This document shows positions 211 to 55,025 of a DNA stretch of 64,000 nucleotides, in pieces. Source of the DNA: Tubulanus polymorphus. Lineage: Eukaryota > Animalia > Nemertea. A model generated the notes under the pieces. It saw nothing but the letters and a program-made list of their open reading frames with translations, ran no database searches and was not told the origin of the DNA. A program made the position numbers and the translations under genes. The DNA lies in the NCBI RefSeq assembly GCF_964204645.1, contig NC_134025.1, forward strand, positions 21,303,101-21,367,100, written 5' to 3'. Positions within the stretch are counted from its first letter, which is position 1. Each line of letters opens with the position of its first letter.

Positions 211-3200
211 GTCGGTAATGCGGATGATGATAGAAATTTTACTTGTTTTCTTTATTTTTGATTTGTTTGAATACTTTTAAGTGTTTTATGCCATTTGTTT
301 TGTTCCACCTTAACTATTCAACTTTCTGCGCCCTCTGTGGAGTTTAGCACGAGGTAACCTCGCTTCAATCACTGGCATTTATTGACTGGCACTAATTATC
401 GATAGTGCATGGCGTCAAAAAGAAATATCTTCTTCCCTAGTTCAGTGGGATAAGGCGTGATACTGTTGCATTCACAACTATCAGCTTTGAAAGAATGATA
501 AATAAGTTTAAGTTCTGCTTACTGCTTACAATGTATGGGCAACACTTCAAAAGCAATCTTGTCGTTAGGTTAAATGAACAATCCAATAGACAATAGAGTT
601 GGTCTTAGGAAACCAAGATCCTAACCACGTAAAGCGAGATAAATGAAAAAGAAATGAATGAAATAAAATCGCATGGATTTGAACTTTATGGAATTTGGAA
701 TTCATAATTGGCTGGAATATCATATTCAGATGGTTGAATAATGATTTCGCCAATCATTCATTGATATACGTGTTATGTATTGATGTACAAGTTGTAGACT
801 ATCTAAAATGCTTTATGAATATCCACAGCAAGGTCTTGCATATATCACGTAAGATGACACACTTCGAAAAACAAGTCTTAATCGAAATCTATTATTCGTG
901 TGGATTCGGTTACATGAAAATACTGATGCAATCATTCAATACATCGATTAAAGATTTTACGTAATCAGTGCAAATATTTTGACTATCTAAATGGTTATGG
1001 ACCCTTTTACAAAATATGAACGCTTTCCTATTATTGCCTACTCCGATCGGATCGTTAGGCAGTCATGTTTAAACGAAGAGACTATTGATCCAATATCTAG
1101 TTGACAATATACATCATATGGGATTTCGGAGGCAGCTATCTTTTATGGCTGATCTGTATATTCACTGTGAATTGTTATGTACGTGTTGTGTTTCGTTGTG
1201 TTTAGTTGGATGATCTGAGGAATCTGGTGCGTGGCGATTTGAGTAAGATGCATCGTTTGATTCTGTCTGCCTTAATCGTTGTCGAAGTCCACGCTCGTGA
1301 TGTGATCGTGAAAATGTTACAAGAGGATGTGAAATCGGTCAATGATTTTGAGTGGATAAGTCAGTTACGGTGAGCTGGGTGCATTTTTCGATCCTTTGCT
1401 ATGATAAACCCACTTCTGAAAGTTCGGAAATGAGTTGATGTAGTTATCGAATTCAGATCTAATGATTCATCAACCTAAAATTTTGTACCAGATAAGAGAA
1501 CTTGAATAATTTCATACTGGATATAACAAACCAACTACGTATAACAAACAGATTTTCTGGTTTTTTTAAGGTCGTTGTAAAATGGTTCCAGTCAATGTAT
1601 GTTTTAAATATCATGTATTTGTAGTTATTATTGGGTTGACGATGATTTGTACACAAGAGCTGTCAATGCAGAATTTTTGTATGGTTATGAATACCTCGGA
1701 AACAATGGACGCCTCGTCATAACCCCTCTGACGGATCGATGTTACCTTACGCTCACCGGTGCGCTTCATTTGAAATTCGGCGGCGCCCCAGCCGGACCGG
1801 CCGGTACCGGGAAAACGGAAACTACGAAAGATTTGGCAAAAGCCTTAGCCGTACAGTGCGTAGTGTTCAATTGTTCTGATCAGCTCGATTACATGGCTAT
1901 GGGTAAATTCTTCAAAGGTTTAGCAAGGTAAGTTATCTACATGAAATATACAGTCCTTGTTGGAAAGAGCTAAATGTCGATTGATTTGTATGACCATATA
2001 AATACAATATTCTCGATGAATGAAATGATAATCCAATATATGTACAAATTTTAATGGCCAGACTTAGGCAACGCAAGAAGGAATGTGGAGAACATTTTTC
2101 TGTAGACAAGTGGGATTTTATATCTATGTTATGTTGATATTTCAGTGCTGGAGCTTGGGCTTGTTTCGATGAGTTTAATCGTATTGACATTGAGGTGTTA
2201 TCTGTAGTCGCTATGCAGATTACGACAATCCAAAAAGCCCAACAGCAAAGGGTGAGAAGAGTTTACGTCTACGCGTAGTATGCATAGATTTCAGCACCCA
2301 CTCGCACCTTTCCTAATCTAATATAGATCGCAGTCTTTCTTTTGCTTTTCAGCTGGCTATGAACTTTCATTATCAGAAACCTGTAACTTATTCACTTTAC
2401 CGGTACATCTTAGAATAAACTTTTTCGCTTTGTTTATGTTTGAAACACCAATCCACTGGCGTTTTGGGAAGATACTGAACACAATTGAAATGCGAACCCT
2501 ACATCGGTGCCACAACATTGAAACTTGCGATGTGTATTAACTAGTTAATAAACACGAATGCGATGCGCTCAACATGCAAACAATGTGCAATTTACGTCAA
2601 GTTTATTCTAAGCTGTACCGTATAAACTGGGTCCAGTTTTGCATGAGTTTGAGATCTTTATTAATTTGTCACTTGCAACCGATTCAAAATTTATAGAATT
2701 TTAGCACTTTTATGAAACTGTAACTTAATTAAAACTTGATGAGCCATATGTCACTTTCTGTAGATCTTAGATATTTTTGAAAGCTGTAATAATGTACTTT
2801 TAATGCTTCAACTGCTATATTGTTTATCCATATTTTCCACAAGTTTCCAAAAATATTACAATAAAGATATGGCATAAGTGTTTTATTTCCAACAAAAACA
2901 ATACAGTTGTTGAAACACTCTAATCCATGTCAACTGTAAATAAAGGAAAAAGTTCCTCAATAAACAACTTTTCCTCAACTTTTTTTATCCGATAAAATTT
3001 ATTGAAACCAAACCACAACATTTCAGCTATAGACTATTAGCCATTCCCCTGATGATGGCTGTTGGTTAGTCAACAGCTGAAACGTTGTTTTATTTCGATT
3101 CATTTTATTGGATAGAAAATTCCTAATGTGGGACATTTTCATTTAAAAACAGTAAAACTGTGTCAGTGCTGAAGCATCAGAAGTAACATGGTCAATGGTC

Positions 3201-6200
3201 ATATCTAGACATTAGCAGACTTTTCCAGAAAAATCATCTGGTACCAGTATGGTATATGAAATCTTTCTTTGACCTCTGTCTTCAGTGGTTGGGAACTATT
3301 TCTATACTTGGCAGTCAATTTATGTTAAGCAGGTGCCGTGACTATATATTCTAACTCTTAATTAATCCATTCTTTAAACTCCTTTAATGATGTAGACAAC
3401 TTGCATGTATTGTACATACTTTTTCATAACGATAATTCAGTCATTATCGGTTTTATTTGATCGGGTAATCAAAATCTGTCATCTCTTGTTGATATCCCTT
3501 AATGCAATTACATGATGTCAGAGCTATATCTCGTCCCGAAATAGAAGTAAGATGTCACTGCAAGTTGTCTATAGCAACTTGTAGAATCAGTAGATAATGT
3601 ATAGATATAGAGTAGATTTTAATCCCTATAGCTTGATAGACATACTATAGCTAGACCGGACTATTGAGCTATATTTGAGGGTAGTTATGATTTCAAAGTC
3701 AAAATATAAAATCAAACTCAGACTAGTTCATTTTCAACTATTGTTTTTAATGTACTGAGTAGAACAACTCCAAATCATACTGTAGTCAAAGTGCCAGTTG
3801 CTCAAAGGTTGGTTTAAGTTAACCAGTCGATAGTTGATATGGTGCAGTTTTGATTGTCACTAGTCTCTAATCAGGGTATAGTATGTCTACATGATCATTT
3901 AATTTTCACCTCCTTAGCACGATGCACCCTCTAATATTCTAGCTGCGGCGCTTGGGCTTGCTTCGATGAATTCAACCGAATTGATATTGAAGTCTTGTCT
4001 GTAGTAGCTATGCAGATCATGGTTATCACACGTGCTCAATTAGAGAAGGTACAATGTTTATTGACTAATTAATTGAAAATCATCTAACAAATGGAAAAAC
4101 GCTAGACATTTTATCATTCTTATCAGAATGACGACAAAAGTGAATGCTCGAAGCCTTAAAGCCTTAATTGTTATTATTAAAGGGTTGGTTCCTCCTGGCT
4201 GTAGATAAATGCTTCAGATGAAAGATGAGATCGTTCAATAATCAGTATCGATATATCATCTTATTTCAGGCTGATCGTTTCATATTTGAAGGAGTTGAGT
4301 TGTCACTGAAGGCGTCGTGTGCTGTGTTCATCACTATGAATCCCGGTTACGCTGGTCGTACGGAATTACCTGATAATCTAAAGGTACCTTTATCACCAAT
4401 GTTATTCACGGTCACTGTGTGGGGATTGTCCGTGACAATTCGAATTTCTCTAAGAGATCTTATAATTATCTGTTCATTCTAAAAGATTTCTGATCAAAAT
4501 TCAACGCGATAGATAATTTTCAATGCTATTTTGATGAACAAATTCATCTCACTCCCTGATGATGTAACCAACGATGTGGCACCCCAGAGTCAAACCCTCT
4601 AGCAGGGTGGCCGCTTACCTGGAAACAAGGAAAAAGTCAGGAAATTTTCTTTTCCTTAAAAAAGCCAGTCATGGAATTTAGTTAAAAAAAAGCTTATTAT
4701 CGGGGAAAAGTCGGGGAGATTTGTTGAGGTTGCTAGATCACGCATATAATCGAACAGTTTCCATCTATGTATTACATAATTGATTGCATTAATTGATCAG
4801 ATTCTTAGTAGATCAAGTCGGGGAAAACAATGTGCATTTCAGGGAAAAGGGACTAATAGAAATGGCCAACCTGTCTTTTTTAATCTTAAAATAGGGATTT
4901 TCCCTGTTATTTATTTGGCTGGTAAATTTTGTTTGATTTTTTGATTGAGTGTCCCTTACAGACCCACCACACCTGCCGGGAGCGAAACAGGGGGTTTGAT
5001 TTTGAAATCGGAAATCAAAGTACAAATATAGTTGTGTGATCCGCGGTCCAGTTAACAGAATTTTTTTTTTGAAATCGAAGTAGTTGGGGTGAATTTTCTT
5101 GGCTGCCTAATTCAATAAATCGAGATTTTGGAAATAGCATTATTACAAGGTCGAAGATCATTTTGTCCATTTTTAAATTTTTTTGTTCGATTTCTACGTG
5201 TAAATAGTCTGATAGTCTATTGTAGTTATTTCCTCGGGTAGATGTTGATGTAGAAGTCCTCTTAAGTTAACTTACCACTGGTGCCTATACTGTTGCTATA
5301 TATTTTCATTGCTTCTCTGTTCGTTATAGGCATTGTTTCGACCGGTCGCCATGATGGTGCCCGATTACGCTCTGATCGCCGAGATTTCGCTGTTCTCATT
5401 CGGTTTCTCCGACGCGAAGAAACTCGCGAAGAAAATCGTGACGACGTTCCGACTGTCATCGGAACAGCTCAGTTCGCAGGATCATTACGATTTCGGTATG
5501 AGAGCTGTGAAATCGGTAATCTCAGCTGCTGGCAATCTGAAACGACAGAACGCCGATATGAATGAGGTACACTCGCTTCTTTTCACTTACCTTCGAGCGA
5601 CAACATCATTCTACTATGTAAAAAGCCCACAATCAATAGAAAAACTGTTTAAGTCATCAAGAGATACCGGGCTGTTTTGATTCACGGGAATTTAGTTGAA
5701 ACGTTGACTATTGCCGTATAACAGTAACAGTAAATTTAAGTGACAGACTGCTTTGGCGATCTAAACACTGTTTAACAATACACAGTTGTTGAATTAAAGT
5801 GCACATTTGCTGAGGTATCATTAGCGTCTATGTAGTTTTTAGTTAGTTTTCAGTTCATAGTCGTTCCAATAATCGTCCAGCCTAGCCTTGAACGAACTTT
5901 TACAGTTTTTTTCGAAATTGACTGGCAGGAATTGATTTGAAGCATATTCTATTGGTTTTTTACTTTAGAAGATAGACAGTTAATTTTCTATAGAAACCGA
6001 TGTTATCTTCGCTTTAATGATCGTTTGTTTTAGGATCTGATTTGTTTACGAGCCATCAGAGATGTCAATGTTCCGAAATTCTTGATGGATGATTTGAAAC
6101 TTTTCAACGGTATCGTTTCTGATTTGTTCCCCAGCACAAAGTAAGTAACAATATTGGCGCTATCTCTTGAATTAGAAAATACCAGTCAGTTGATGAATTG

Positions 6201-9200
6201 TGACTTAGTTCTTGGACGAGTCAACTTTGTTCTATAACCGATCTAACAATTTGGACTTAGAGTAAGTCATGACTGCAATTGGCCCCCAAAAACGGTAGGA
6301 TTTCATGTTTTTAGATTGGTTATAGGACCAATAAGGCCTAGTCTCTCTCTTGCTCTCAAATCACTGATACATCTAATGTTCTAGAATCTCTACTATTCTC
6401 AATCCTGTCTCTTGAACCAACCAACTCTTGAGTTTCTATGGAACATATACGCATGCATTCATCCAGAAAATATTGATTTCTGTCTGGTTTTTAAGGGAGG
6501 AACCGATCGATTATGGTGATTTGATGACATCTTTGAAGAAATCGTGTTTGAAAGCTGGTTTGAAAGACGTCGATGGCTTCATTCATAAATGCATACAGCT
6601 CTACGAAACGACCGTGGTTCGTCACGGTCTTATGTTGGTCGGACCGACAGGTTCCGGAAAGACAAGGTGTTACGAAGTGCTTCAGAATGCTATGTCCAAC
6701 CTGAAGGGTCAGATGTCGCCGGCAGGAGTACCCTTCGAAATGACGCATACATACGTTCTCAACCCGAAATCGATCACTATGGGTCAGCTTTATGGTGAAT
6801 TCGATGTGCTCACTCACGAATGGTAAATTCTTTTCTAGATTTTGTATGATCTCATTAACCTTACAATCGCTTGAATCTGTGATATCAGTACTCTCAAAGT
6901 AGCATCAAGAATTCCTTGATTTTGCTTTTATAAAACTATGCCCGGGCTTGTCTTCCCACAAGAGAAAATAATTCTTTGACACTAGATGTAGTTACTACTC
7001 AACTGCATCAAGAAAAAAAGTTTTAGAGTTGAACAAATCATAACTAGATATAAAAGATCCATTCTCCTGATTGAAATGGCATTTTATGAATGATTTTATA
7101 TTTTCTTTTTTAAAATTTCATGAAATATCTTTTTCCAGGACTGACGGAATATTGTCGTCTTTGATTCGCGTCGGAGCTGCGTCTAATGACGAGGATAAAA
7201 GATGGTTTTTATTCGATGGACCGGTCGATGCTGTCTGGATCGAGAACATGAATACCGTGTTGGATGACAACAAGAAGCTTTGCCTCAGTTCTGGTGAAAT
7301 TATCAAGCTATCGGATGTGAGTTCTCCATATGACTTGCTTGAGATTCAATCAGAAAATGCGTTATGTTTGATTTTTATCAAGTAAATAGTTGTGAAGAAT
7401 AATTTCTCTAACTGGGCAAATATGAAAATTGTGATTTCTATTCAAAGCTGAGACTGAAATGTAAAAAGATAATGAAATATTGGTGAATGATATTATTTGG
7501 GTTGCTTCAAAACTATTTCAAAATCTAGATCCGAATGCAATGTTAAGGTCTGGTGTATGTTACTATAGCTGCGATCACACAAGCGTTTTTGGCCCGTACG
7601 AGATCAGGCCTGGGATAACGGTTCACACAGGTGCCAAATGGCCCCATGACTGTTCCCCATAACGCGTGCCAGATTTCGTGATTTCATGATAAACCAGCCG
7701 ATATGAAAATTTCATTACAGAATATGACGATGATGTTCGAGGTGCAAGATTTAGCGGTAGCATCTCCGGCTACTGTTAGCCGATGTGGTATGGTATACCT
7801 AGAACCGAGTATTCTAGGTCTGTCGCCGTTCGTTGATTGTTGGATCCGACAACTACCCGATCCTATCTACCTATACAAGGACAAACTTCAAGGTCTTTTC
7901 GATTTCTTCCTCGAGGTAGGTCGGCCGTTCAACTATATATTTCCAAATGGTTTTTGCCTCTGATGTATCAACACGTAAATAGCGCCCTGGGATTAAAGCC
8001 CTCTCCCTCGGGTAAATTTCTGGAAGTCTGGAGACCTTGTCATTATAACTGTATATCAATACTAACTATTATTTGTGCTGCAATAGCTTTATCATGCCAT
8101 TATGATAATTTGATCAGTCATATTGAAAGCAATAGTTAAAAGTATACCAGTATACCTTTGCCGAGTATGAAAATGTACCCTATGATGTTTAATGTCAATT
8201 TGAGGGAGTTTTTGGGAAGTGGGGCAATCATCCTGATATGACTTTAGGTGTATACCATTGGATGCATTGAATCATCATATATTTTGGCAACCACAAATAA
8301 TATACATACAATAAATATCCATATTTTACTGCCGAAATACAGTCCCTTGTTCACTGAATTCAATACTTAACACATTTTCATGGTTTATCTCTTCCGATAC
8401 GTAGGATTCCATAAAGTTTCTCAGAAAGAATATGAAAGAATTTGTGGCATCGATGGACAGCAATTTGACATTCAGTTTGACGAAACTTCTTGATTGCTTC
8501 TTCGCTCCATTTATTCCAAAAGAGGTAACGTTTCTTTCACCAGTTAATCATTTAACATAGATGTTGGTTAATGTTCCCAATGTTTAATAATTTGGGCAGA
8601 TAAAAAAAAATTGTTAGTTTCTTATTTTGGCTGTTTTGCTGAATTATGAATATTTTTTTCATCAAAGTTAACACCTATTAGGTCTATATCCAGTTATCGC
8701 TAAGTGGTGATATCAAAATCATTTTCTGTAGCGAAGGTCATTGTGAACATTGAAAGAAATAGTGAATATTGGGTCAACAAACACGCAGGTTTGCTGCAAA
8801 CCTCTAAGAATCGATTGTTAGAATGAAAACCTTACAGGCATAAATTTGTATCATTGGCCATAGATATAACGTTTTAATAGTATGTTAAAATATCAACAAA
8901 ATCTGTCAAAGTTTGTATTGATTTTTTGGGGCCTAAGTTCTTGTATCCATCCATACCCACTGCTGCGTCTAAAGGAGGATATGGTTGTTGAACAGGCACC
9001 TGCGGTCACTTCGCGAAGCCCATCAAAGACGCCGCGCTCGCAGGGTTTCGATTACGGCGAATTCGACGTGTCCGATTCCGATAACGAAGACGAAATAGAA
9101 ATGAATCGATTTTCAATGAGAGTAAGTCGGCATGAAAAGCTGACAACGCATGAATCACTTCATAATTTCATTCCGCTCACAATGCCATCGTGTGTGGCAG

Positions 9201-12200
9201 GCTTTACATAGCAATTTTCACCATTTATTGTTCGTGAATGGTCAAGAATTTCATTCCGTCTTACAGGTGCTTGAATCTAAACGCCATCAAGATTCTACTA
9301 TCTTTAAACAGGTAGTAGGTATTGTAGTTCTTGATCAGTTCGAATCCTTGCTATATTGAATATTTGAATGTATATGAAAGATCTTCCACATTACATTTAT
9401 ACGATACCTAAATAGGATGAATTTCTTAGTGTATTATTACCTAAAGGTAATTCTTCTTTTCATTTTTAATTCGTCATTTAGAATCTGCATGAATTGTACT
9501 TATTAGAAGTTGTTTGGGTTATACTTCCCTATTGCATCAATCACATTGTCTATAACGACAATAATACAGAAATATTTAGGCTAGAAAATTGCAATTCAAA
9601 GAAATTTTCATCATCCATGTTACATCATTGATCACAAGTTACCAGTTTATGTATTGTTGTTGAAACCAAAAGAGGTACTAGAAAATTTCAAGAATTTTGG
9701 AAACAGGATTCAAAAAGGGAAAGAGTTTATGGTATTAAAAAACCTGGCTAAATAGTGACTTTTGATGAGAAAAACTATTGTTAGAATCACCTGTATTTGG
9801 GTGAAACGGCTGTTATGATACTTTTAACTGGATTTCCTAATCTTATTGCTGTGGTTATTTCTTTACAGAAAATGTCAATGAACATGAAGGTGTGTCTCTT
9901 CTTTTAAGTAGTGAAAAATCTATAGGAAACTTGATGCACTCTGATTTTGTACTTTATCTAGCTAACTATCCGTAGTAGGAATACCTGATTTCTTGCGTCT
10001 TTTAACGTAACTTCTAAAATCGGTATTATCAATTGTTCATTGCTCTACTCTGACGTAATGACGTCTATGCTCGATTGGTTGTGTTGGTTGATTTCTGTAT
10101 GAATTTTTGTGAATGATCTGAAAGATTTTCATTCGATTTCATCTCTTTTCTGAGAACACTCTCTCGTACACAATTTTCTAATCCACAAAGATTGCACTTT
10201 TTTACACTTTTTAAAATAATGAGTACGTTATGAAGGTGACTGCATATGATATTATAGATTTCTCTGAAGGGGTTCTGGAGTTTGTTGGATGTGTTGAGAT
10301 ACTGTCCGAACGTGGAGGCATTTTTCGATAGAAGCATTAGCTTATTCCGATGATACCTGCAGAGCTGCCAACTTTTCCTGATTTTCACTATTTGTTACTA
10401 CTTGATAATGAGAAATACTGATTTGATTTGTTTGATGCGTATAGAAATATGAAAGATGTTGCTGAGGGTCTTACTGTTGATTACTGATTAATTTGAACAT
10501 TTTCTTTCATATTTCAATGAAATGTTACTGAAAAAAATTCAATTTGTTACTGATGAGCATGTACAAATATTTAAAAACAATATCTCGATTACCTATATCT
10601 AGAAGCAATTTGATCAGATACTCGGTGTATTATTTATGAAAATTCTTGTTATCGGAATAAGCTAACGTTGCTTTCCTTTTCCTATCAACTTCACTTGCAA
10701 TTCACAACATAGATTTTCATTTCATAATCTTTTCTGTCTGCTGATAATTTTCCAAATTCGATTGAAAAAATTGTATAACGATGTGGGTCGAGTCTTTGTC
10801 GAAACCTCCAGAGCCCCATATTTTGTATGTTTGTTTACACTTTTGATTGAATTAATGCTGTTTGTCGTTGCACTAATGTCAGGTTCGCAAAGGGCACCAT
10901 GCACATATGTCTGGGGTAAGTATTCACTTGAATTGCTTCCTAGAGAGGTTTCTATGAGCCAGCCAAATCAATTTTGATTAGGCAATAGTAGATTTATCAA
11001 TTTTGGGTAAAACGTTTTAATTGAGTTGGGGGTCAAATTAAGCCAAACCAATTACAGGTATCCATATATACAGTAGACACTACTCAAGTTGGACCTTTTG
11101 GGACCGTAAAAATGTGTCCGACTTGGGAGATATCCGAGTTGGATATTATTCATTTCATATAAAGTGTCCAAAAAAATATTTCAACGATTATCTGAGTTGA
11201 ACAGCTATCTGAGTTGATCGGATCCGACTCGAGTGGAGTCTACTGTAACGGTAAGAGATTTCCCACAAATCATGGTTATACAGCGGGTAAATGTTGCTAT
11301 TGTGTCCGTCAGCCTAATTGGTTGGCTCATATGAACATTGTTGAAACTCGGCAATTATATATACATACCGGTATGCTTTTAAAAAGGTGATATTTATCTC
11401 AATAACTAAATACATATATTAAGATATCGAAATATCGGGTACCTTTATCTTATGATTCCTCTGTTCTGATATGATATACATCATTCCTCTGTTCTAATAT
11501 GATATACATACATTTCTATCTACCATTTCTATCTATGCATCCGTGGATTCACTGATTCATTAGTTCCTTATTCTTAGATCAAATTAAAGAATTGTTTACC
11601 ATATTCTATGTAGACTATGTATCTATCTGAATGATGAAACTAACAGTGAAAATAAAATGTGACCATATTGGAAGACCAAGATTCATAGCGTTCATTGAAT
11701 GTCTTCAGAATGAATTGAATCAGTGAGAGCTTTTGACTTTCCCCAAAATGACAAGTGTCTGAAAGTTTTTGAGGAAAAATGCAAGTATATGACTAAGATT
11801 TCACTGTTGCAACCTAAATGTTGAAACTCTTTGAAAAAAACTTTGGAGAAATTCTTGGGAAGCTGCGTTTACAATACGTGATTTACAACATTCTTAATTT
11901 AGTCTGTTCCAAATTTGAATTAACTAAAGAAGAACAGACCAAGCGATCACACTAGCAAAATTTCCCTTCTAAATTGGTCTGTTCCATCTAAGAACTGACC
12001 AATTTAGACTGTTGCAGGTTTGTTCTGAATTTTAGGATGGACCATTTCGAGTTGGTAAATGAATTGGTTTTAGGATGAACTGTTTCATTTTGAGTTGTGT
12101 CTAGCTGGACCAGTAATAACAAAAGACTTAAAAATGTGTGTGATTGCAATGTGATTGCACAGCATTGATTTGGTCTGTTCTGAATAGTTCTGTCGCAGGT

Positions 12201-15200
12201 ATGGCCCAAATTAGAAGGGATTAACTAGTGATGGTGTGAATTCAGCTTATAAGAATATGAATCCTAGATTATTTTGTCATGAACTGGATACATTTCAAGT
12301 AAATTTTGCAGAAGGTTTTGTCTGGGCTGTATAGTTATTATGGTCCATCATCAATTTGATTTTCGGCACTTTTCATTATCATCTCACAGACGTTGAATGA
12401 GACCTTTTCGTGTTTTGTATCGTTTAGGGGGAGAAGCCGATTCCCGAAGAGCGATTGGCGCGAGTTGTAGAATTAATCGAACCGTGGTTTATATTTTCCT
12501 TGCTCTGGTCGGTTGGGGCCACTTGCGATAACGACAGCCAGCACAAGTTCGACCAATGGTTACGCGAAAAGACCAAAGAATTCGGTGTAAGTTTGCAAAT
12601 AATCTGAAAGTCATCCTACATGAAATCATGTAGTTTGAGTGATTTCCTCAAAAACCCTATAAGTATGTGTTCAAGGGACGATGCTCTGGCTACAGCCACG
12701 TAGGCCTAGCTGTTCTTGTTAAAACATTAAGTATGCACCCACTAGAGCCACATGGTGCTCTAGCTCAGTACCATATACTTCTGCTCTACCATACAGTAGA
12801 ACTCACTTAATTCGGATGACTTGGGACTGGCCAGATTTCTCCAAATTAAATGAGATCCAAATTATGAATAAATAGTTAACATGGTTCCAGGTTAAATGTA
12901 CCAAATATTTCATCCGAATTGAATGAAAATCCGGATTGGAAAATCCAAATTAAGCGAGTTCTACTCGACTAGCTGTATCCTTCAAAGATTCAGCTAAAGA
13001 TTTTGAGAAAGGTGGATTTGGCCGACCGTGACACAGTACACCGTGGCTATAGTGAAACTTGAAAATCTCATGGTATCCAACTAGGGAATTTTGTTGTTAA
13101 ATGAAAAAATGATTTTTCTAGATAAGCCTAGTTTTCCCCGAGGAAGGATCGGTGTACGATTACATGCTAGATGATGGAGGTATCAGTCAACCGGGAAGTG
13201 ATGATGATGAGGAGGATGAAAACAAGGAGGAAAAACCTGTAAGTATTTGAGATCGAATCATCATTGTCATTTCTACCTGATATTGAAAACATTAGGTTTT
13301 TCATTCATGGTGTTGCTTGTTTTTTTTAGGTTTGTTGGGTTAATTGGATGGCAAATCTGCCTAAATTTGTCATTCCGCCTGAAACTAGATATTCTGATAT
13401 CATCGTTCCAACTATGGATACGGTCAGAATGACCAAGCTGATTCAAATGTTGTTGTCGAACAATAAAACTGTAAGTACCCTTTTGAACTTGCATTTTTTA
13501 TGCTATTGAAATGCCCTTTCGACAGGAAATATGCCCAATTTCAGGACGTTTTCCAGATCATTCGACAAAATTATGCCATTTTACCTATAGAAAGTGTCCC
13601 TTTCAGATTTTTTGTCCCCATGAATATTTGCATGTTCTTACCATGCGTACACAAAGCTCCCGCTCGGAATCAATTATATCCAGCGAGGAACTGGTGAACT
13701 TCACGATTTAGGGGAATAAAGGTTGCAAAAATTATGATTCTCTGTTTACAGGTTTTATCTATCGGACCTACTGGTACCGGTAAAACATTAGCGATATCCG
13801 ACATGCTGACGAAGGTTATGGCTAAGGAATACATTCCGGAGTTCATTTCGTTTTCGGCGAAGACAAGCGCCAACCAAACTCAGGATTTGATAGATGGTAA
13901 ACTTGACAAAAGGTAATTCGTACATACGTAAAAATAGAGAATATTACTCAGTCTAGGAAACCAATCCTGAAATTAAGATTATAAGATATCAACATCAACA
14001 CTGTTCTTTTTGGTATTTTACCAGACGTAAGGGTGTTTTCGGTCCTCCGCTTGGCAAGTATTTCATATTTTTTGTCGATGACTTGAACATGCCGGCGTTA
14101 GAAATTTACGGAGCGCAACCTCCGATTGAGTTGATACGTCAGTGGATGGACTTCAAGGGATGGTATGATCGTAAAATGATAGGTATGTACGAGTAGATAC
14201 AGTAGAGGTATTGTTAAATCCATACAGTAACTGGCAGCGCAAAGGATGTACAAATTTCACCTATTAGAGTCAAACTAACCTAACACTGTAGAACTAATTT
14301 TTTCGGAAAATGAAATATTCTCAGATCTGAGAAAAAATATTCATACCAAATCAGGGGCAGTGCTAGGAAAATTGGAAGGCTGGGGTCCAGGAGAATAAAA
14401 ATGCATTTCTTGGATAAAGCAGCCAAGTCAAAGGCCTCTATTGGGGTTTTCGCGTGGTTCTGCCCTCGGTTTTAGATATTTGTGAAGAAATACATCCGGA
14501 AGGTTGCAATTTCCGTGAGGATGAGCGCCAAAGACTGCCATTTGATTGTACATATTGGTCCCTGATTTGATAGTTTAAATTCAATGTTTTGTTCCATATC
14601 AAAAAATTAATTGAACTGCCGGAGCAAGTTTTAATAAGCTAATTACCCAATTAATTGCTCTGATTAATTTGTCTATTGCCGAGCTCTGAGTTGAGAATCA
14701 TAGCTAATTGGGTAGTCATCAATTGAGGTAATTAGTGACAAGTTGTCAGATGAAGAGATACCCCTGGCCAAACAGACACTGTGTCACTTGTCAAACTAAT
14801 AGCTATAAAATCTAGGCACGATTTCCAACCAGTATCAAATTGATTCACAGCAACTGAGAACAAACAACATGGATTACGAAACTGCCGTTGAAAGCTTCTT
14901 CGAAATCGAAAAACGCTTTCGAGCTGCGTGCTCGAAAATCATCGTCATCGACGAGAAACTATCGCGCCTCGACATTCAACTGAACAGAGCCGAGAACGAC
15001 GTTCACTGTCCGCGTTCAAACCTCATCAATCGCAAAATACAGATCTCGACGCTCGAAGGAGTACGGTTCGTCTATTATGAATACGCGCGCAGAAAAGCAG
15101 CCGAAATGAACAAACTTCGAGAGATTTGTTTTATCGCCGAGCAACGACAACAACAGCAGATGTCTCTGGATGAAGATTATTGATTATTTCAGCAGCAGCA

Positions 15201-44890: not shown

Positions 44891-45234
44891 GATTAGCTCA
44901 CGCCTTTAAACACAACTCGTCACGCGAATAGTAAACATTCGTCATAAGTTCCAAGTTGGAACTTATAACGTCGAAGCCGCAATTTCTAATCGGCGAATAT
45001 CGGATTAATATTTCATCATTTCACGAAGCTCTGTGCCGTGCGCAGCGCTGTCTGATAGTGAAACGCTGCTGCGACACACTACAACAGTACAACAGCGCCG
45101 CTATCTCGTTCATTTTCTCAGCGTCGCCGTCGGGATAGACACATTTACGTATACGGGGTGGATTACAGCCGCCGCCACCGCATTTCTGGACTTCTCGGCC
45201 CCGACCCCCTATTCGGAATAACGGACTAACGACG

Positions 45235-45339
45235 ATGGATTTCTACGGTACGGATAGAAAGCTTTCCGAGCTCGGCGAGAGCGATTTCAACGACCTACTC
45301 GACCACGATATGTTCGACGGCACATTCGGTGCACTACCG
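45235..45339 (+). CDS. CREB3L1: CREB3L exon 1
   Basis: [23 protein letters not shown]...|gtaagt. Confidence 0.85.
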
Positions 45340-48300
45340 GTAAGTTACAATACAATATACAATACTTACAGCGGTACTGCCGCTGGTAAATTGAAGTAAA
45401 ATTTATTTTCTACCAGATGTCCAGTGGTGGGTCGAATTTTCGGGGCTCCAAACATGAATTGGTCTTGGCGCAACATTTAAATAGCTTGACAGCTTGTTGG
45501 TATTCATAATGACATCGAAATCTGGGGTATGGGGGTTAGGAACTAATGAAATAAACCTACTAATCAACTAATGTTGTGGTCCTTTGATGAAACTTTTGAG
45601 CCGCAACCCCTCAGCTAGTCTACCCCTCAGCCAAATGAGGGGTGTTTGAACTGTAGCGACTGCAGCGGCCAAAGTCGCAGCAATAATTTACTAGATGATG
45701 TTATTTTTTCTTCCAATACCGCGATTTTAATGAAATTGAAGTAAATACCCCGCAGTAAAATATTGGCGATTGACTGCAGCGATAAAAAATTGCTTCCAAC
45801 GCGCTTGCAAACTGGCAACTCTTCGCTTCGAAGACTTATTATTTTTATTTCAGTTTCCCGTCTCATTTTGTCTGGGCTTCTATCATATTAATCAACCATC
45901 TGGGAATGCTTGATTCACTTCTCAAATGAAGTATCACTCGTACAATTATAGTTACCAGTATTTCATTCAGTGCTTCGGAGGTTGGGGGCGACTGATCAAC
46001 AATTAACATCTATTCAATCTTGGGAATATCAATTTCAGTGTAAATTTCAGGTTTAGATATTTAGATATATAATTGGGTCTGACGTGGCATGTTATTAAGC
46101 GTGTTAATTAATGAAAAACAAATTGGGAATAGTAATTGATTCAATGATGAATTGAAAAAGATATTCTCGCGCTAGAAAAGTTCAAAAACCAGTGACAGCG
46201 TCAAACAAAAGGCTTTCAGATTTCACTCAATGTACAATAAGGACACACATCCCTGGTTTAGGCATGGACTCTTAGAATTGAAACGATTTAGAGTCCATGA
46301 TAGGCAACTATGATCAACAATATGAAAACATTGCCCGCAGTCCAAATCAATGATATTATTCGATCCTTGGAACGCTCCTGAGGCCTTAGAGGGGGTCTAT
46401 TAATAGTGTATTGCGCAGGCATTAATTCCTATTTGGCGCTGAATGTGAATTTTTCAGCGTGCACTGCATTTTTTTGTGTGCTAGGTGAAGGAATATGTCA
46501 GCTGTTTTCGATAAAAGATCGACCTAAATGATTGTGGAAACTGGATTTTGAACCGTGACCTGCCACAACAACGTAATTTCACATGGCAACATTTACTATC
46601 TAAAGTACCATTGTCACGATAGCCTATTCAATGGTTATATCGTAATAACGTATATTGAGATGTGGGTACCAGTTCGGGCACGTGTGGGGGATTCATTTTA
46701 TCTGTTACAATGAAGCGCGCGGGTACCAGTATTTAGAAGTCCAGTTTTAATCATGGAAATCCATTATTGTGATGACTTACACGCTCCGAGCATGTTTTTA
46801 CGTGAATAGACTTTTACCTTCCTAGCAGTAAACAAGGAAGGTATCTGCATTATTAATAGTTCTTCATGACAATTGAGTTTCAAGCTAGGCTTTCAATTAG
46901 GCTAATGCCTGGTGCGGACCCACGCTGTATTTTGGAATACAGTCAACGTTTTCAGAGTACTCATCAAAAACAATTTTTGAAGTAATTTTGGTGCAAAACT
47001 TGCTCAGAATGGCTTGTAATCCGTAATGACTTCACCTCCAGTGCTCACCTTCGAATGGCATGGGCACAAGTTTTGCCCTTTTCATCCCTCAAAGGTGCCA
47101 TTTTATTACTGGAATACTGTGAGTAGCTGGCTCTGGATCTGCCCCTTGACATTTTTTTACTCCAGGCCCCTGTTTCAACTGTTTAATTTCTAATCATTTA
47201 AAGGAATGCAAGTTTATGTTAAGTTTGGTGCGTACTTCGGTATGTTAACCCAAACAAAGGGAATATTTTGGTTTAATTGCTTTATGGTTACTTCATAGTT
47301 TCAATCAGTGAGGACAAAACAATCCAAACTTTTTAAACCATAAGACTGATCCTTTTCCTGACACTGGACTCTGGACATTTTTATTTTGGTGAATATGAAT
47401 TCTCTTATTTTGTCCAGTGGTGGATCCTGGCTGGAAGAAACTGGGGGGTTGTTCAAAAGGGCACTTTTTAGTCATGGCGGGTGTTCCTGTTTGCTAGGGG
47501 TAAAACTTAGGTATTAAAAAGCAAGGTATATTTTATATACGCATTTAGTGCATATTAGATCAGTACAGGGGATAAGAAGCCTATATCAAGTGGATTTTCA
47601 AAAGAGCACTCGCACAGAAAAGGGGGAGTTTGAACCCCCTGAACCCCCTTCTGGGTCAACCACTGCTCTCATACATAATGATGCCTCATAATGGTCTATA
47701 TTAGAGCATCCCTGCGAACAATGAGCTGCTGGTGTTGAATTTATCCTCTTTTCATTTATGTTTTCAACAAGGCAATGGATGAACAGTACAGCTCCGATTG
47801 TCAAGATTGGTTGGAGAGTTTGTTCGAAGACCCAGTGCTCAATGATAAGATGATGTCAGACGCCCTGCATCCCCCGCAAATCAAGTCCGAACATAGTTAT
47901 TCTCTTAGCAATGATGCGAATGGTCAAGAAAGCAAAACAGAATCCGGAAACAATGGTAAGAATTGAATAACGTATTTTCATCCTAATTGCATTTGGACAA
48001 GCGCTCATGTGGTATTAACAACTGCAGGGGCCAGTTTTATAGACTGGTATTATTCATTCATTCCCCTAAGCAACCAGAGCCATAATAGAGAATCTCTGTT
48101 GACTATGTTTCAAAATGTTGTGCACCTTGGCATCTTTCAGAGCTGCCAAATGTCCCTGAAAATAGATTTAAGGTATTTGGATCAGAATCCTTGAAGAACC
48201 TTCTGTCTCTAACAAAGTTTATTTCTTGTGTCCCTGACTCAAGCCCTGTTTAAAACTCATACCCTGTTACTCGATCAAGACTTTGGTCCGAAAATGGTCA

Positions 48301-51300
48301 TAATCCTAAAACCTGGTCTTAAATTATTTCGATTGGCTATAGAATTAAGCTGGCCCGAGACTGGTCTTAAAGTAAGTTATGTATCATGACTGTGTTATTT
48401 GCCTCTGGTCTTAAACTTATCTTTTCTCTCCTCAGAGATGGACATAGAATACTTGACCGAGACGCCTCAGACGAAGGCGTGCGACTTGTCGAAGAAGACG
48501 TTGGATCAGAAGTCGACGTCGTCGTCCTCGTCGCAGGTGGTTATGATCAAGCAGGAACCGCGTACGGAGATCATCACGACGTCGGCGACGACGGCTACGA
48601 CGATACTGAAACAACCGACGATCGTCCTGACGACGACGACGCAGCCGATATCGACGCAACACCGCATCGGCGTTCAACAACCGGTGACGAAACACGAACG
48701 AATGATCGTGCCGAAATACAGCATCAAGTTGGAGCCGCACGATCTTATCGACTCGATGAGTGATACATCTAGTAAGACACGTTAGATATCTGGATATCGA
48801 GGGGTTCTTCTGGGAGCCTCGAAATTCCCTCGGTTAGGGATTCGAACCTGATGGCATTGCTACACTCAGCCACGGCACAAAACCCTGCCACAGTAGACAG
48901 GGTGCGCAGGTTTACTGCAGGAAAACTTGCGGCACCAATCAGATTGCTCATTGTATAATCGCTGAGAGGCTATAAATGGGAAACCCGGGGCTGAAATAAA
49001 ACGGGATATCTGATTGGCTAAAAATGATTTCATCTAGCTGCGCGCTCGGTTTATCTAGTATGGCAGGGTTTTGTACCATGGCAATCTCGATGCCATCAGG
49101 TTCGAATCCCTGCCTGGGGAGGATGTTCGAAACATTTTGTAAAGAAAAAAAGAAGATTTTTTTTCAACATAGGTGCAATCTATTGTAATTCTGTAAGGGG
49201 GTGAAAAGTGTACTGCAAGTCCACCTTTGTTGTTAACTTGCCCAAGATGTATTTGGTAAGACCCTTCAATCTTGCCCCTCTAGTTCTTTGGCTAGAAAAA
49301 GAAAAAGAAGAAAATTCTGCTAGCCTTGATATACGCCTGCGAGCCTTAATCAAATAAAGTCGGAACAAACTGACGAATTCAGTTGCCCTGTTTGTGCTGA
49401 ATATGGGTGTGGTAGTATTGAATATGCCTCGAAGGGCTTCGATCAATCAGAACCACAATTTCAAAGTTGCTTCGAGCTTTATGCTGCAAGGTTATATGAT
49501 AGTTACTACTGATGTGGGATCAATATAAACTGTCGGCCAAACTGACACATGTGTTTATTGTATTGGATATATAAGCACGTTGAACAACGAACAATAGCGC
49601 ATCAACTGTATTTGATATCTCCGAATCGATGTTTTCTCACAGTAGTTAAAGGTGGGATGGGTCCAGGGATAAGTTGAGACTAAATCGAAAAAAAAAACGG
49701 TTCTTTCTTCCGATAAGCCCCGGGTATGGTATATACGACTAGCGTTTATAAGTTTACGAATCCATAAACAGCTGAACTCGCTTAATTCAGATGATTAGGG
49801 ACTGCCCGGATTAAATGAAATCCGAATTATGAATTCATAGTTTTGATTAAAACATGGTTCTAGGTTAAATGGACCAAATATCCAATCCGAAATTAAATGA
49901 AAATCAGGATTAATTGGGTTCTATTCTCTCTGTGTATAAGTAATTCCTGCTGCCTCTAGTGCCGCTGAAAAGTATTCTGAATTCCTTCACTCATCTCATT
50001 ACATGTACCTAAATAAATGTTTTTCTATTTGTCATTTTGAAGACGACCATGTCAGTTTGCCGCCCACGCCGCCCAGCAGTAATAACAGCAGCGACAGCGA
50101 AGGTGGTCAGAGTCCGCTGAGATCGGCGCCGTCGAGCCCGATACGGCACACGTTAATACCAAACAGGCTTCCTCAGACGACCGTTACCTGTAGAACCTAC
50201 ACATCTCAACCTCTCTTCTCGAGTCCCGTTCGAGTGAGTTCGTTTTCTAGCCTTGTCGGGACTTCCATTTATACGGGAGCATTAGGCACAAATTTTAATG
50301 ATGATAAACAGGTCATATCTCATGACGTGTTTCATAATTGCTGCGGGTTTCAAGGTGATTTGGTAATTTGTGTTCGTTCACTTAGAATTTTTAAATTGCC
50401 AGATTGTCAAGCATTTCACCGAGTGGGCATGGTCTCCCTGGAGCTTCATTTCCTACTATGTTTTCAATCATAGCTGCTGGGTTTAACGTGTGGAGTACCT
50501 GAATCTCTTTTGGGTCTATCTAAGGATGTATACCTCTGAGTCCAATAACTCCGCTGTTTTCCCATTTTTGGAACTAAGCCTATTAATCTAAAACCCAAGC
50601 GGAAAAGCTAGATCGTGAATCGGTGTTCCTTAATTCGACTAACATTATTAAACAGTATCCTAACAATGTCATCCCACATGAAATGAAAATTGTCATCAAT
50701 TTCAACTGACTAGGTCGACGCTTAATGATGGGTTAAATTATTCTGTCCGAACTAGACAAATTTGATAATTTTTCCGACGCGGCTTATTAGCTTGTTAATA
50801 GGTGTGGGGGCTAATAAAACGGTTTCGGTCTGAACATCGGCATAAAGCCAACAACGCCAGAGTGTTTTGAAAAATGTTCAGTCTTTTAAGCACATAATCA
50901 TTATCAGAGCTATTTACACTAGGTGTTACCGGTTTCTGTCTGGACAAATATTTAGCTTTCACCGTATTTGTCGATGTATGAAACGAATGAACCTGACGTT
51001 TACTGATTTTTAGGTCAATTTAAGGGTGGACCTCGAAGTTCGTAAGAGTTGTAGAATTTCAAGCTTTGGCAATGACTGAATGAATTTGGCAAATTCTACC
51101 TGTTGAAATGTATGAAAGATATAGTCGGGTCATAAAATATTTGCACTTTTTTGTGGGGAACTGATTCAAATTATGTCAATTGACACACAATTGACGCTTC
51201 CATACATTATGTTGGACTCCATTCTAGTAGTAAAATTCCTGTACAAGTTTTAGAAACCCACAATAAAATACCCCCCTATGAAATCATTTCATTATAAAAT

Positions 51301-54111
51301 ATGGAGTGACAGTAAAGTGACAGTCAATTCAATTGCTATGAATCACTCATTTTTCTTAAAGAAAAAGTAATTTTTAATTTTGTGGGTTTTTTTTATAAGG
51401 AACATTTGAATACTGTGAGAGTAAGTACATGTTTCTTGTCCTTCCTTGTCCAAAGGTATTCCAGCGCTTTCCTCAATTTTATAGGCTCTAATGCCTATTA
51501 TGAGAAAATGTCTTTTCTCGTGCTTAACGACGTTTTCGGGTCGTAATGTGCTTTTCCTGTCCATTTGAGCGCTTTTGCGCTACGACAATTTCAATTTTCC
51601 GATACGGGGAAAATTTGATGAGAAAACGTCTTGTCGGCATGTTCTCTACATGTGTTTAGCACTAAATCCAGGGTGTGTTCCTTTTTTCTCTTGTTGAAGC
51701 CATGGACCTTGCCATGCACTGTGCCTATGACTATAGCATATAATTTTTAGGAAATTCACGCATCATAATGAACCTGAACCGCGAGCAGAGTTCAGTTTAT
51801 TTCTGATATTTGGACTTCGCATTAAAACTAAATCATCCTGTCACTATTTTATGAACTACTACACTGAGTAATTATCTTATCAAAAAAAAAACCTTGTAAA
51901 TGATAAATCATAGTGTGATGATTACATAAATGCACTTTGGTACTGTTTATATGGTCATTGAGTGTGTTATGATGGACTCTGGAAACGTTCAACTTACGAT
52001 TGTGTCAATTAATTCTAGGTCACTCACAACGGCGTGTTGGTACTAACCGAAGAAGAAAAGCGCACGCTTATCACCGAAGGCTACCCGATACCCCAGAAAC
52101 TGCCTCTTACAAAACAAGAAGAGAAAAATCTAAAGAAAATACGAAGAAAAATAAAGAATAAAGTGAGTTTTATAAATTATTGGCGCTATTGTTCCAATCA
52201 TTCAATTCTGGAATGCCGAACCTCGTAAGTGCCTTGACCTACAGTACTGTAACTTCTTGACTCTGTCAAGACGCTTCTCATCACCTATCATCTTCTGGAG
52301 AACACAGGCTGATAAATGGCTTCAGCATATTTTACTTTACTTAAGCTCAAATTTACATTCCCCACCACACTCTAGCGCAATTATTTAGAGTTTGCGCAAG
52401 AAAGACATGTAATTGTACCCTCTTTGCTCCCAACTACCGGCACAATTTGGTACCTCGCTAGCTATGCGTGCGGTTTAGTACCAGGACCTTCTTCGCGACA
52501 TGATTGATACCCAGTTACATACATACATGAGCCACTTGGTCAATTTTCATAATATCCTTGAGCTATAATGTTAGTGGTTACAGGTAAATAAATCAATGTA
52601 TATCACTTGCAGATATCTGCTCAAGAAAGTAGACGAAAGAAGAAAGAATACTTAGAAACTCTAGAGAAAAAGTAAGGCGCTGATATATATCGGCTTCGAG
52701 TGATTAGAAAATATTCCGAATTTGATCTCAATCGAAAAGTGAATGCTCATATAAACTGTAATCTATCAAATTTTAGGGTAGAAGCATTTACGCATGAAAA
52801 TGGGGAACTAAAACGAAAGGTGGATTCACTTGAAGGAAACAACAGGTAAATAGGAATTTTCGATCGTCGATTCGATGATTTAACCCTTTCAGAGGTGACT
52901 AATTAATATCCTATAGTGCTGGAGAAAATGTGAAAATTTCGGATAATTCCACCCTAGTGTGTTGAATAACGGGAATAGCACTATGATGCGTCTACACCGC
53001 GGCGAAGTGTATCGTTAGTTACTATTATTTCACTATGTTTGACGGGTGCTGTCATCTTTGTATAGAGATAAAAACTAAAAACTAATTACATCAATACACC
53101 GCAGTGCGGTGTACTAGCAAAATCCATTACCGATTTATACACCGCACTGCCGTGTAGATGCACTGAAAGGGTTAATAGCATTTAGTTGGAATATCGAGTT
53201 GTCAGCTTGAGTTGTCTGTTATTTGGTTGGAAATTCTGACTGATTGCTCGATGAACTTGCTTAGTGGCTCAGGCAATTCTGTTAATTCAATATGGTACCA
53301 ACGCTGTTGGAATTACCGGTTTTTATATTGCAGGTGCTCTTGTGACCTGTGTTGCCTTATTGTTGTTAGTGGGGCAGACCAAAACTGATGAAAATACTGT
53401 TCACTTGTCTCTGATTATGAAACGGGGAATCATCCCTCTTATCTGTTTGATTTATAGATTGATTGATTTTGATTCGATTTAAAATTGTGTGTCCCTTACA
53501 AACCCATCAATCACACCTGTTGGCGACAAAACAGGGGGTTTAATTTTGAAATCAGAAATCGAAGTACAGATATAGTCAGATGATTGGCATTTGTAGATCT
53601 TATGTCTATTTTGTAAAAAAAAAGATATCAATTTATATGTTTTTCCTCTATGCGTAGATCTTTACTGTCACAACTGCAGAAGTTACAATCCTTGGTAGGG
53701 AAAGTAAGTCGACCATCTGCTGTTACGTCAACACAAACCGGAACCTGTCTCATGGTAAGCATACATCGAAGTCGTTCACTTCGTTCTTCGTTTTCGACTC
53801 TAGTTTCCCTTGCACTAGTTTTCGTTCTCGACCTAGCTCCACTGAGTCCTGCGTTTTTGACTCTAATGAACGAAAACTGATTTCGAATCGTATAGCCTTT
53901 CTTAGTGAGCAATCCGTGGAGCCGGGTCGGGATTCGATTCGTATCCATGAAAGATTCATTCATCGTAAGTTTTCGGATGAATTCTTTGTCCTCTACATAA
54001 AAAACTATATCAGCTAAGTCTACATTCAGGTTTTTGATTTTGAGTTGATTGCGGGCTCTCTATGCAGGGACTGAAGTTCGATAGATTTGAGATTGACTGA
54101 TTGGTTGATTA

Positions 54112-54157
<46 letters not shown>

Positions 54158-54707
54158 CTTAAGTTCATTTGTTAACCCCTAGGGCCAGTTGCACAGTTGT
54201 GACTTTAGTCCAAAAGTGTTCTTAATTCTTAAGACTGGTCTTAAGTTGTTAGATTGGCTATAGAACTAAGTTGGTCTTAGACTGGTCTCAAGTCTAAAGC
54301 CTGACTATGCAACCGGCCCCAGGGGCTGGTTTCATTGTCTTAGATGGTCTTACACTGGTTGCACATCTAAGCCATGACTGTGCAACTGGCCGCAGATGAC
54401 TGGGGTTAGGTTAGTCCGAATCCAATGATATTATTTTGAGCTTATCGATATAGGTAACTCTCGCCAAATCCACTGATCAGCAAGTACTCATTTGAAACTT
54501 GAATTTCTGACTCCGTAATTTAGACATTGCTGATAATACCGATATATGGTAATCCTTTATAAAGTATTGAAATTTTATTCAATACACCATTCAAGTGTCT
54601 CGCTTCATCCAAAAATCATTCTATCTATATGATTATTATTCAGCGCCGATTGTTTAAACAGCTGGTGCTCCAAATACCCCATTCGCTAATAACGTATCTG
54701 AAATATA

Positions 54708-54785
<78 letters not shown>

Positions 54786-54935
54786 CATCTTTTAATTCAT
54801 GTTAATTCCGATGTGTTTGTGTGAATGAAATCGCATTTCCGCATGATTTCGATATGATGAAGCAAGTCACAGCGGTAACACATGTCCGGCTATTAACGCA
54901 GATGGCGGGAAATACAGCGTGTAGCGTGAAAACAG

Positions 54936-55025
<90 letters not shown>

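Follow-up and report, generated by a model that had tools for sequence, protein, structure and literature searches.

A tandem pair of 106-nucleotide exons in the AAA1 module of the axonemal dynein gene DNAH1 of Tubulanus polymorphus and its likely counterparts in other spiralians

A stretch of 64,000 nucleotides (nt) from the nemertean Tubulanus polymorphus (NC_134025.1, positions 21,303,101 to 21,367,100, here called the window) contains a dynein heavy chain gene in which one short exon, coding for the Walker B strand of the AAA1 module and the helix that follows it, is present twice. The locus raises the question of whether these two copies, named here exon A and exon B, are alternative parts of one motor protein and, if so, how old the arrangement is. 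Our analysis suggests that the tandem 106-nt pair is common to molluscs, annelids and probably rotifers, and that its members are likely spliced singly, which would give two dynein-d chains with the same catalytic residues and a different outer face of the AAA1 helix H3. We place the probability of this reading at about 0.88. The features of the window on which it rests are as follows.

73-40318 (+): 3' part of the DNAH1 gene (DHC8, inner-arm dynein d), residues about 1375-4212; 49 blocks to RefSeq model P0308, best PDB matches to mammalian DNAH1.
1625-1927 (+): constitutive exon with the AAA1 Walker A motif, ending in phase 2; sequence, PDB matches and P0308 alignment.
2146-2251 (+): exon A, with the ancestral-type Walker B strand and helix H3, used by the RefSeq model, weak donor; splice sites, human match and P0308.
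2252-3942 (+): intron between the copies, 1691 nt; sequence.
2401-2620 (+): 22-bp inverted repeat in this middle intron, arms 2401-2422 and 2599-2620; z -3.7, 0 of 50 shuffles, the repeat having been chosen for testing after it was seen and in this intron only.
3943-4048 (+): exon B, the alternative copy found in spiralians, missing from the RefSeq model, weak acceptor; splice sites and cross-species identity of B.
4270-4383 (+): constitutive exon with the AAA1 PS-I hairpin (inner-arm-specific Glu) and the sensor I strand, starting in phase 0; sequence, P0308 and structure model.

Over 2834 residues, in 49 exact-match blocks, the window agrees without a single difference with the RefSeq model P0308 (DNAH1-like, Tubulanus polymorphus). 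This model is the sole member of its cluster and uses exon A, while exon B is not annotated in it. Comparison of the upstream exon with solved structures gives mammalian DNAH1 as the top three PDB matches (197-201 bits), the next match reaching 167 bits. As judged from such comparisons, in which DNAH1 outscores other heavy chains, the host gene of the exon pair is an orthologue of DNAH1, also known as DHC8 or IAD4.

Both exons are 106 nt long, are preceded by AG and followed by GT, and are identical at 74 of 106 nt. An earlier note on this DNA had placed two such exons at these positions with the same phases and intact splice sites, all of which was borne out by our recount. A splice-aware pattern has exactly two matches in the window, exons A and B, and none in 100 shuffles. 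The flanking exon before the pair stops at 1927, leaving phase 2, and the split codon is Ser whichever copy follows; the exon after the pair begins at 4270 in phase 0, and the frame stays open with either copy alone. The claim that inclusion of both exons or of neither breaks the frame also holds, since an early stop was computed for each case: about nine codons into B when both are joined and about 13 codons into the next exon when neither is used. Window-wide, the duplication involves a single internal exon and is not a tandem gene copy. The pair displays the equal length, shared frame, splice sites, homology, common structural element and single internal position that serve as genomic criteria for mutually exclusive homologous exons in Pillmann et al. 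2011 (PMC3228551).

Substitutions between the two copies are strongly biased towards synonymous change. The earlier note had counted 12 synonymous and no replacement differences in a 24-codon core, and our recount agrees (proportion of replacement differences, pN, 0). Because that core had been picked after the fact, a count over all 35 codons was added, and this gives pN 0.15 against a synonymous proportion (pS) of 0.84 (Fisher p 5e-9). Synonymous differences between the copies have reached saturation (pS 0.80-0.84), which indicates that the duplication is old and not recent. The excess of pS over pN, together with isoform pairs in relatives, supports the reading of the pair as mutually exclusive exons of a DNAH1 orthologue that are kept by purifying selection. 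The earlier note had further proposed a search with exon B alongside substitution rates; besides the rates given here, B-like exons with the same ends were found in other genomes.

Annotated isoforms, counted here among the cluster members listed, lend indirect support to the use of one copy at a time; RefSeq isoforms generally rest on RNA reads. Both forms are annotated in at least nine species of bivalves, abalone and rotifer: Argopecten (3 B, 3 A), Mizuhopecten (4 B, 2 A, full-length), Ruditapes (1 B, 5 A), Mercenaria (2 B, 6 A), Haliotis rufescens (2 B, 5 A), Brachionus calyciflorus (1 and 2) and the three mussels Mytilus trossulus, M. galloprovincialis and M. edulis. All six A/B isoform pairs of equal length differ solely within the 35-residue block, and the three unequal pairs are identical over 426-2160 residues on each side of it. 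Gene models of the annelid Paralvinella and the rotifer Brachionus plicatilis read through two copies in tandem, and in Octopus the annotation shows either of two forms, depending on the species. Exaiptasia (P0001) was considered as a further two-copy case and rejected, its high score being due to a model in which a long segment, an identical exon included, occurs more than once. Several gastropod genera were seen to have two distinct DNAH1-like proteins (P0154/P0315, P0238/P0314, P0227/P0323, P0307/P0309 and P0136/P0318), the second of which has a changed helix H3; in these genera, duplication of the gene may have taken over from the exon switch.

A splice-aware scan of metagenome contigs adds 52 loci, several of which are near-copies of one organism: ten have two copies of the exon, four have three and 38 have one copy seen. 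The multi-copy loci (14 of 52) keep the AG and GT ends. Twenty loci span both flanking exons, seven with two or three copies and 13 with one. Eight of these 13 are cnidarian-like, two fish-like, two sponge-like and one echinoderm-like, and the upstream intron is missing from the last three. In placement, L019 falls with bivalves, L048 near Paralvinella, and L012 and L031 with Brachionus; the phylum placement of L027, L030, L037, L047 and L051 is not confident. The three-copy loci L012, L029, L031 and L052 are all alike, and those placed in the tree (L012 and L031) group with Brachionus. In these rotifer-like loci a short intron divides the third copy into parts of 34+72 nt, a layout read by eye, and in the first and third copies the acidic pair of Walker B is preceded by Leu; L003 shows two of the copies. 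As a separate observation, in the second copy of L037 the Trp ahead of the Walker B strand, invariant elsewhere, is replaced by Met. Four loci with long introns (L006, L050, L007 and L025) have a single A-type exon; L007, L025 and L050 share the acceptor sequence and jointly span both flanks. Their layout suggests a loss of B.

The earlier note had proposed a lineage-specific duplication, and this part of it is not supported. Exon B of the window is closer to B of molluscs and annelids than to its own A: it is identical at 32 of 35 residues to the B exons of Haliotis, Mercenaria and L048, at 31 to Ruditapes B and at 30 to Paralvinella B, against 27 of 35 for its own A. A tree of 62 exon rows has all 17 B rows on one side of a branch (support 84/74; 88% of bootstrap trees), a weak tree in that it rests on 35 columns; its row labelled Human is the macaque cluster P0180, whose block is identical to that of the human chain. 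The order is A then B wherever both are seen outside rotifers (the window, Paralvinella, L019, L048, L051, L047 and L037). The note had also stated that human DNAH1 has Q where both window exons have M, and this is seen in the human sequence. Met at this position (23) is present in 11 of the 17 B rows (of nemertean, mollusc and annelid-like origin) against 3 of 16 A rows, and is therefore a B feature gained by A more than once rather than a sign of recent duplication. A-type exons with Met23 were observed in three separate lineages (window 2146-2251, Haliotis A and L019/L021 A), and the Mya exon mixes features of A and B; convergence or gene conversion between the copies are candidate explanations for these sequences. 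The best reading of these comparisons is a single origin of the pair before the nemertean, mollusc and annelid lineages split, which rotifers may share.

What differs between the two proteins is confined to a small part of the module. The earlier note spoke of a swap of the Walker B segment; the exon does carry Walker B, but the strand and its acidic residues are identical in A and B, and the differences lie in the following helix. The two proteins agree at 27 of 35 residues and differ at positions 1, 26, 27, 29, 30, 33, 34 and 35, and exon A is identical at 34 of 35 residues to human DNAH1 1626-1660. In an AlphaFold model of the related fragment P0112, exon positions 4-7 form a strand and 15-33 a helix, and the next exon opens with the PS-I hairpin; given the low confidence in AAA1L (pLDDT 44-67), nothing but the secondary structure was taken from it. 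Projected on a helical wheel, the near-invariant positions 17, 18, 21, 24, 25 and 28 are no more than about 60 degrees from the hydrophobic face, and the changed positions 26, 27, 29, 30, 33 and 34 (and 23) lie 78-178 degrees from it. The changes are thus predicted to sit on the outward face of the post-Walker B helix, by the PS-I hairpin near AAA6. The structural context of this hairpin and AAA6 is described by Gleave et al. (PMC4047620, section 3.3.1). It is possible that exon B, whose residues are more hydrophobic at 23, 26, 27 and 33, alters the packing around the PS-I hairpin and the AAA1-AAA6 interface and thereby tunes kinetics; such altered packing would change how the ring closes or how ADP is released, and so yield a motor that suits a different type of cilium or a different stage. 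The contrast of sperm with somatic cilia, which the earlier note gave as an example, would be one such case.

How one exon would be chosen can be judged in part from the splice sites and introns. The donor of exon A is weak, with 4 of 46 donors of the gene scoring lower. A candidate rule that B donors are consistently weaker was rejected, as the donor of B in the window scores 7.1 bits against 5.3 bits for A. The middle intron is 1691 nt in the window, which would be too long for steric exclusion, and 338-1635 nt in nine other loci; an AG about 25 nt before the acceptor of B argues against a distant branch point. Pairing between a docking site and selector sequences was not found in the window (best ungapped duplex z -0.56 and -1.85), and in 18 long-range pairing tests on the nine other loci none went beyond z -1.7, these tests covering ungapped, nearby duplexes. 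Exclusion enforced by the frame agrees with the premature stops that follow from both exons or neither. The simplest reading would be that a splicing factor regulates the choice, A being the default and decay triggered by the frame a safeguard. Exon A would be the default form because the acceptor of B is weak and A is the copy in the RefSeq model, the factor, itself regulated, would switch to B in some ciliated cells, and transcripts with both exons or neither would be removed by nonsense-mediated decay.

Several observations weigh against a functional and ancient pair. The acceptor of exon B is very weak, only 1 of 46 acceptors of the gene scoring lower. The one-member Tubulanus RefSeq cluster carries exon A only. 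Among the cluster members listed, one form only is annotated in Lineus (2 of 2), Mya (7 of 7), Patella (5 of 5) and Schistosoma (11 of 11), and likewise in the Biomphalaria, Elysia, Macrostomum, barnacle, hemichordate and echinoderm clusters; in none of these groups is absence thereby proven. L006 and L050 go from an A-type exon to the next exon without a second copy, so that the pair is dispensable in some lineages. The single exon of the barnacle and two rotifer exons fall inside the B side of the tree, possibly by convergence, and the low confidence of the P0112 model (pLDDT as above, without coordinates) leaves the contacts of helix H3 predicted only. The single RefSeq form, the weak acceptor and the loss in L006 and L050 would also fit exon B being a recent relic, formerly a working alternative exon and now silent in T. 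polymorphus. We consider this very unlikely, as B keeps its length, frame, both splice sites and 32 of 35 residues of mollusc B; against L048 B its pN is 0.066 with pS saturated at 0.75, so any decay of this intact exon must have begun very recently. That the pair is an assembly artefact or the remnant of a duplicated neighbouring gene has a negligible chance. No points in its favour were found, this is the only exon duplicated among the 49 blocks, and the pair recurs in other animals. Contigs of the DNA run X1 also hold both exons in place, with 0 differing letters. As X1 is possibly the source of the window itself, these contigs argue only against a local assembly error. Contigs from three runs of one study span introns without splice joints and have no bearing on expression either way, and the lack of variants in the exons in X1 carries no information, about one variant being expected in 212 nt at 15 per 3212.

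Repeated independent duplication in nemerteans, molluscs, annelids and rotifers, with second copies that converged, would be easier to accept given that the block has 35 residues only and that single exons of barnacle and sea anemone have B-like residues. The rotifer pairs look different, their first copy being the diverged one, three copies are present in L012, L029, L031 and L052, and the second copies of L037, L047, L051, L027 and L030 are without Met23. However, five to seven identical replacements are common to nemertean, gastropod, bivalve and annelid B, and the A-then-B order is constant wherever it was seen outside rotifers. We regard separate origins as unlikely overall, and as an explanation that stands mainly for rotifers. 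It is similarly improbable in our judgement that both exons are used and their proteins work alike, the pair being a redundancy or a splicing-coupled decay switch that sets the level of DNAH1. The identical catalytic motifs, the tolerance of single-exon lineages to changes at the same helix positions and the early stops produced by both exons or neither are compatible with it. Yet A is almost invariant (34 of 35 residues to human) and B keeps its own conserved residues across phyla, which fits separate constraints on the two.

Other observations concern the rest of the window. A 147-nt candidate cassette exon at 8975-9121 (+), absent from the RefSeq model, preserves the frame, is rich in Ser, Asp and Glu and has a GTAAGT donor; it sits within the 3903-nt intron 8525-12427. 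Isoform models of molluscs and Lineus have variable inserts of 6-19 residues at the same junction, which is a candidate second hot spot of alternative splicing in DNAH1. High-copy repeats are present in introns at about 4680-5380 and 3793-3845, with summed contig depth in the thousands. Downstream of the dynein gene, exons at about 45100-56900 (+) resemble a gene for a putative CREB3-like bZIP transcription factor.

Returning to the exon pair as two alternatively spliced forms of one motor, its interest lies in how one genome tunes beats for different cilia. Animals have fewer genes for single-headed inner-arm dyneins than there are positions in the axonemal repeat (Kollmar 2016, PMC5100056). 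With 6-12 residues next to the AAA1 site changing between two conserved states, the pair amounts to a natural experiment, readable in existing RNA-seq of bivalves, abalone and rotifers. It highlights a helix surface that may set dynein kinetics, and as the block is nearly invariant in human DNAH1, the B residues show which changes are tolerated there. More speculatively, and with the odds somewhat against it, splicing might have switched the main ATPase module of dynein-d since the spiralian ancestor, giving mechanically distinct motors per kind of cilium (compound cilia used in feeding or swimming, for example, as against sperm or simple ones), with three versions in rotifer-like genomes and with some snails having swapped to gene duplication.

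The DNAH1 pair is apparently ancient and undescribed in print, though latent in database isoforms. Automatic RefSeq and GenBank models of DNAH1 from bivalves, abalone and Brachionus already contain the same 35-residue swap as unlabelled predictions, the Tubulanus model being without B. No published description of this DNAH1 exon cluster was found in a literature search that covered few subscription journals. The dynein survey (PMC5100056), in which DNAH1 is DHC8/IAD4, states that alternative splicing affects the motor domain in some dynein heavy chain genes and, in the passages covered, names only an example in DHC1, not the DNAH1 pair; its supplement files 2-3 contain neither 'mutually exclusive' nor 'splice', and file 1 might list the cluster. 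The DHC1 exon of Schistosoma mansoni (PMC3228551), the one published example of the kind from a dynein, is comparable in that equal-length homologous internal exons are predicted from the genome in a spiralian dynein heavy chain. However, DHC1 is cytoplasmic dynein-1 and its exons have codons split at both ends, whereas the present pair lies in axonemal DNAH1, has phases 2 and 0 and is found in several phyla. A further parallel is offered by the mutually exclusive exon clusters of muscle myosin heavy chain (Kollmar and Hatje 2014, PMC3912159). These are likewise ancient duplications of motor-domain exons in protostomes and lophotrochozoans, with lineage-specific loss and with gene duplication as an alternative route. 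Myosin has many such clusters with known mechanical effects, whereas the effect of the DNAH1 pair is predicted only.

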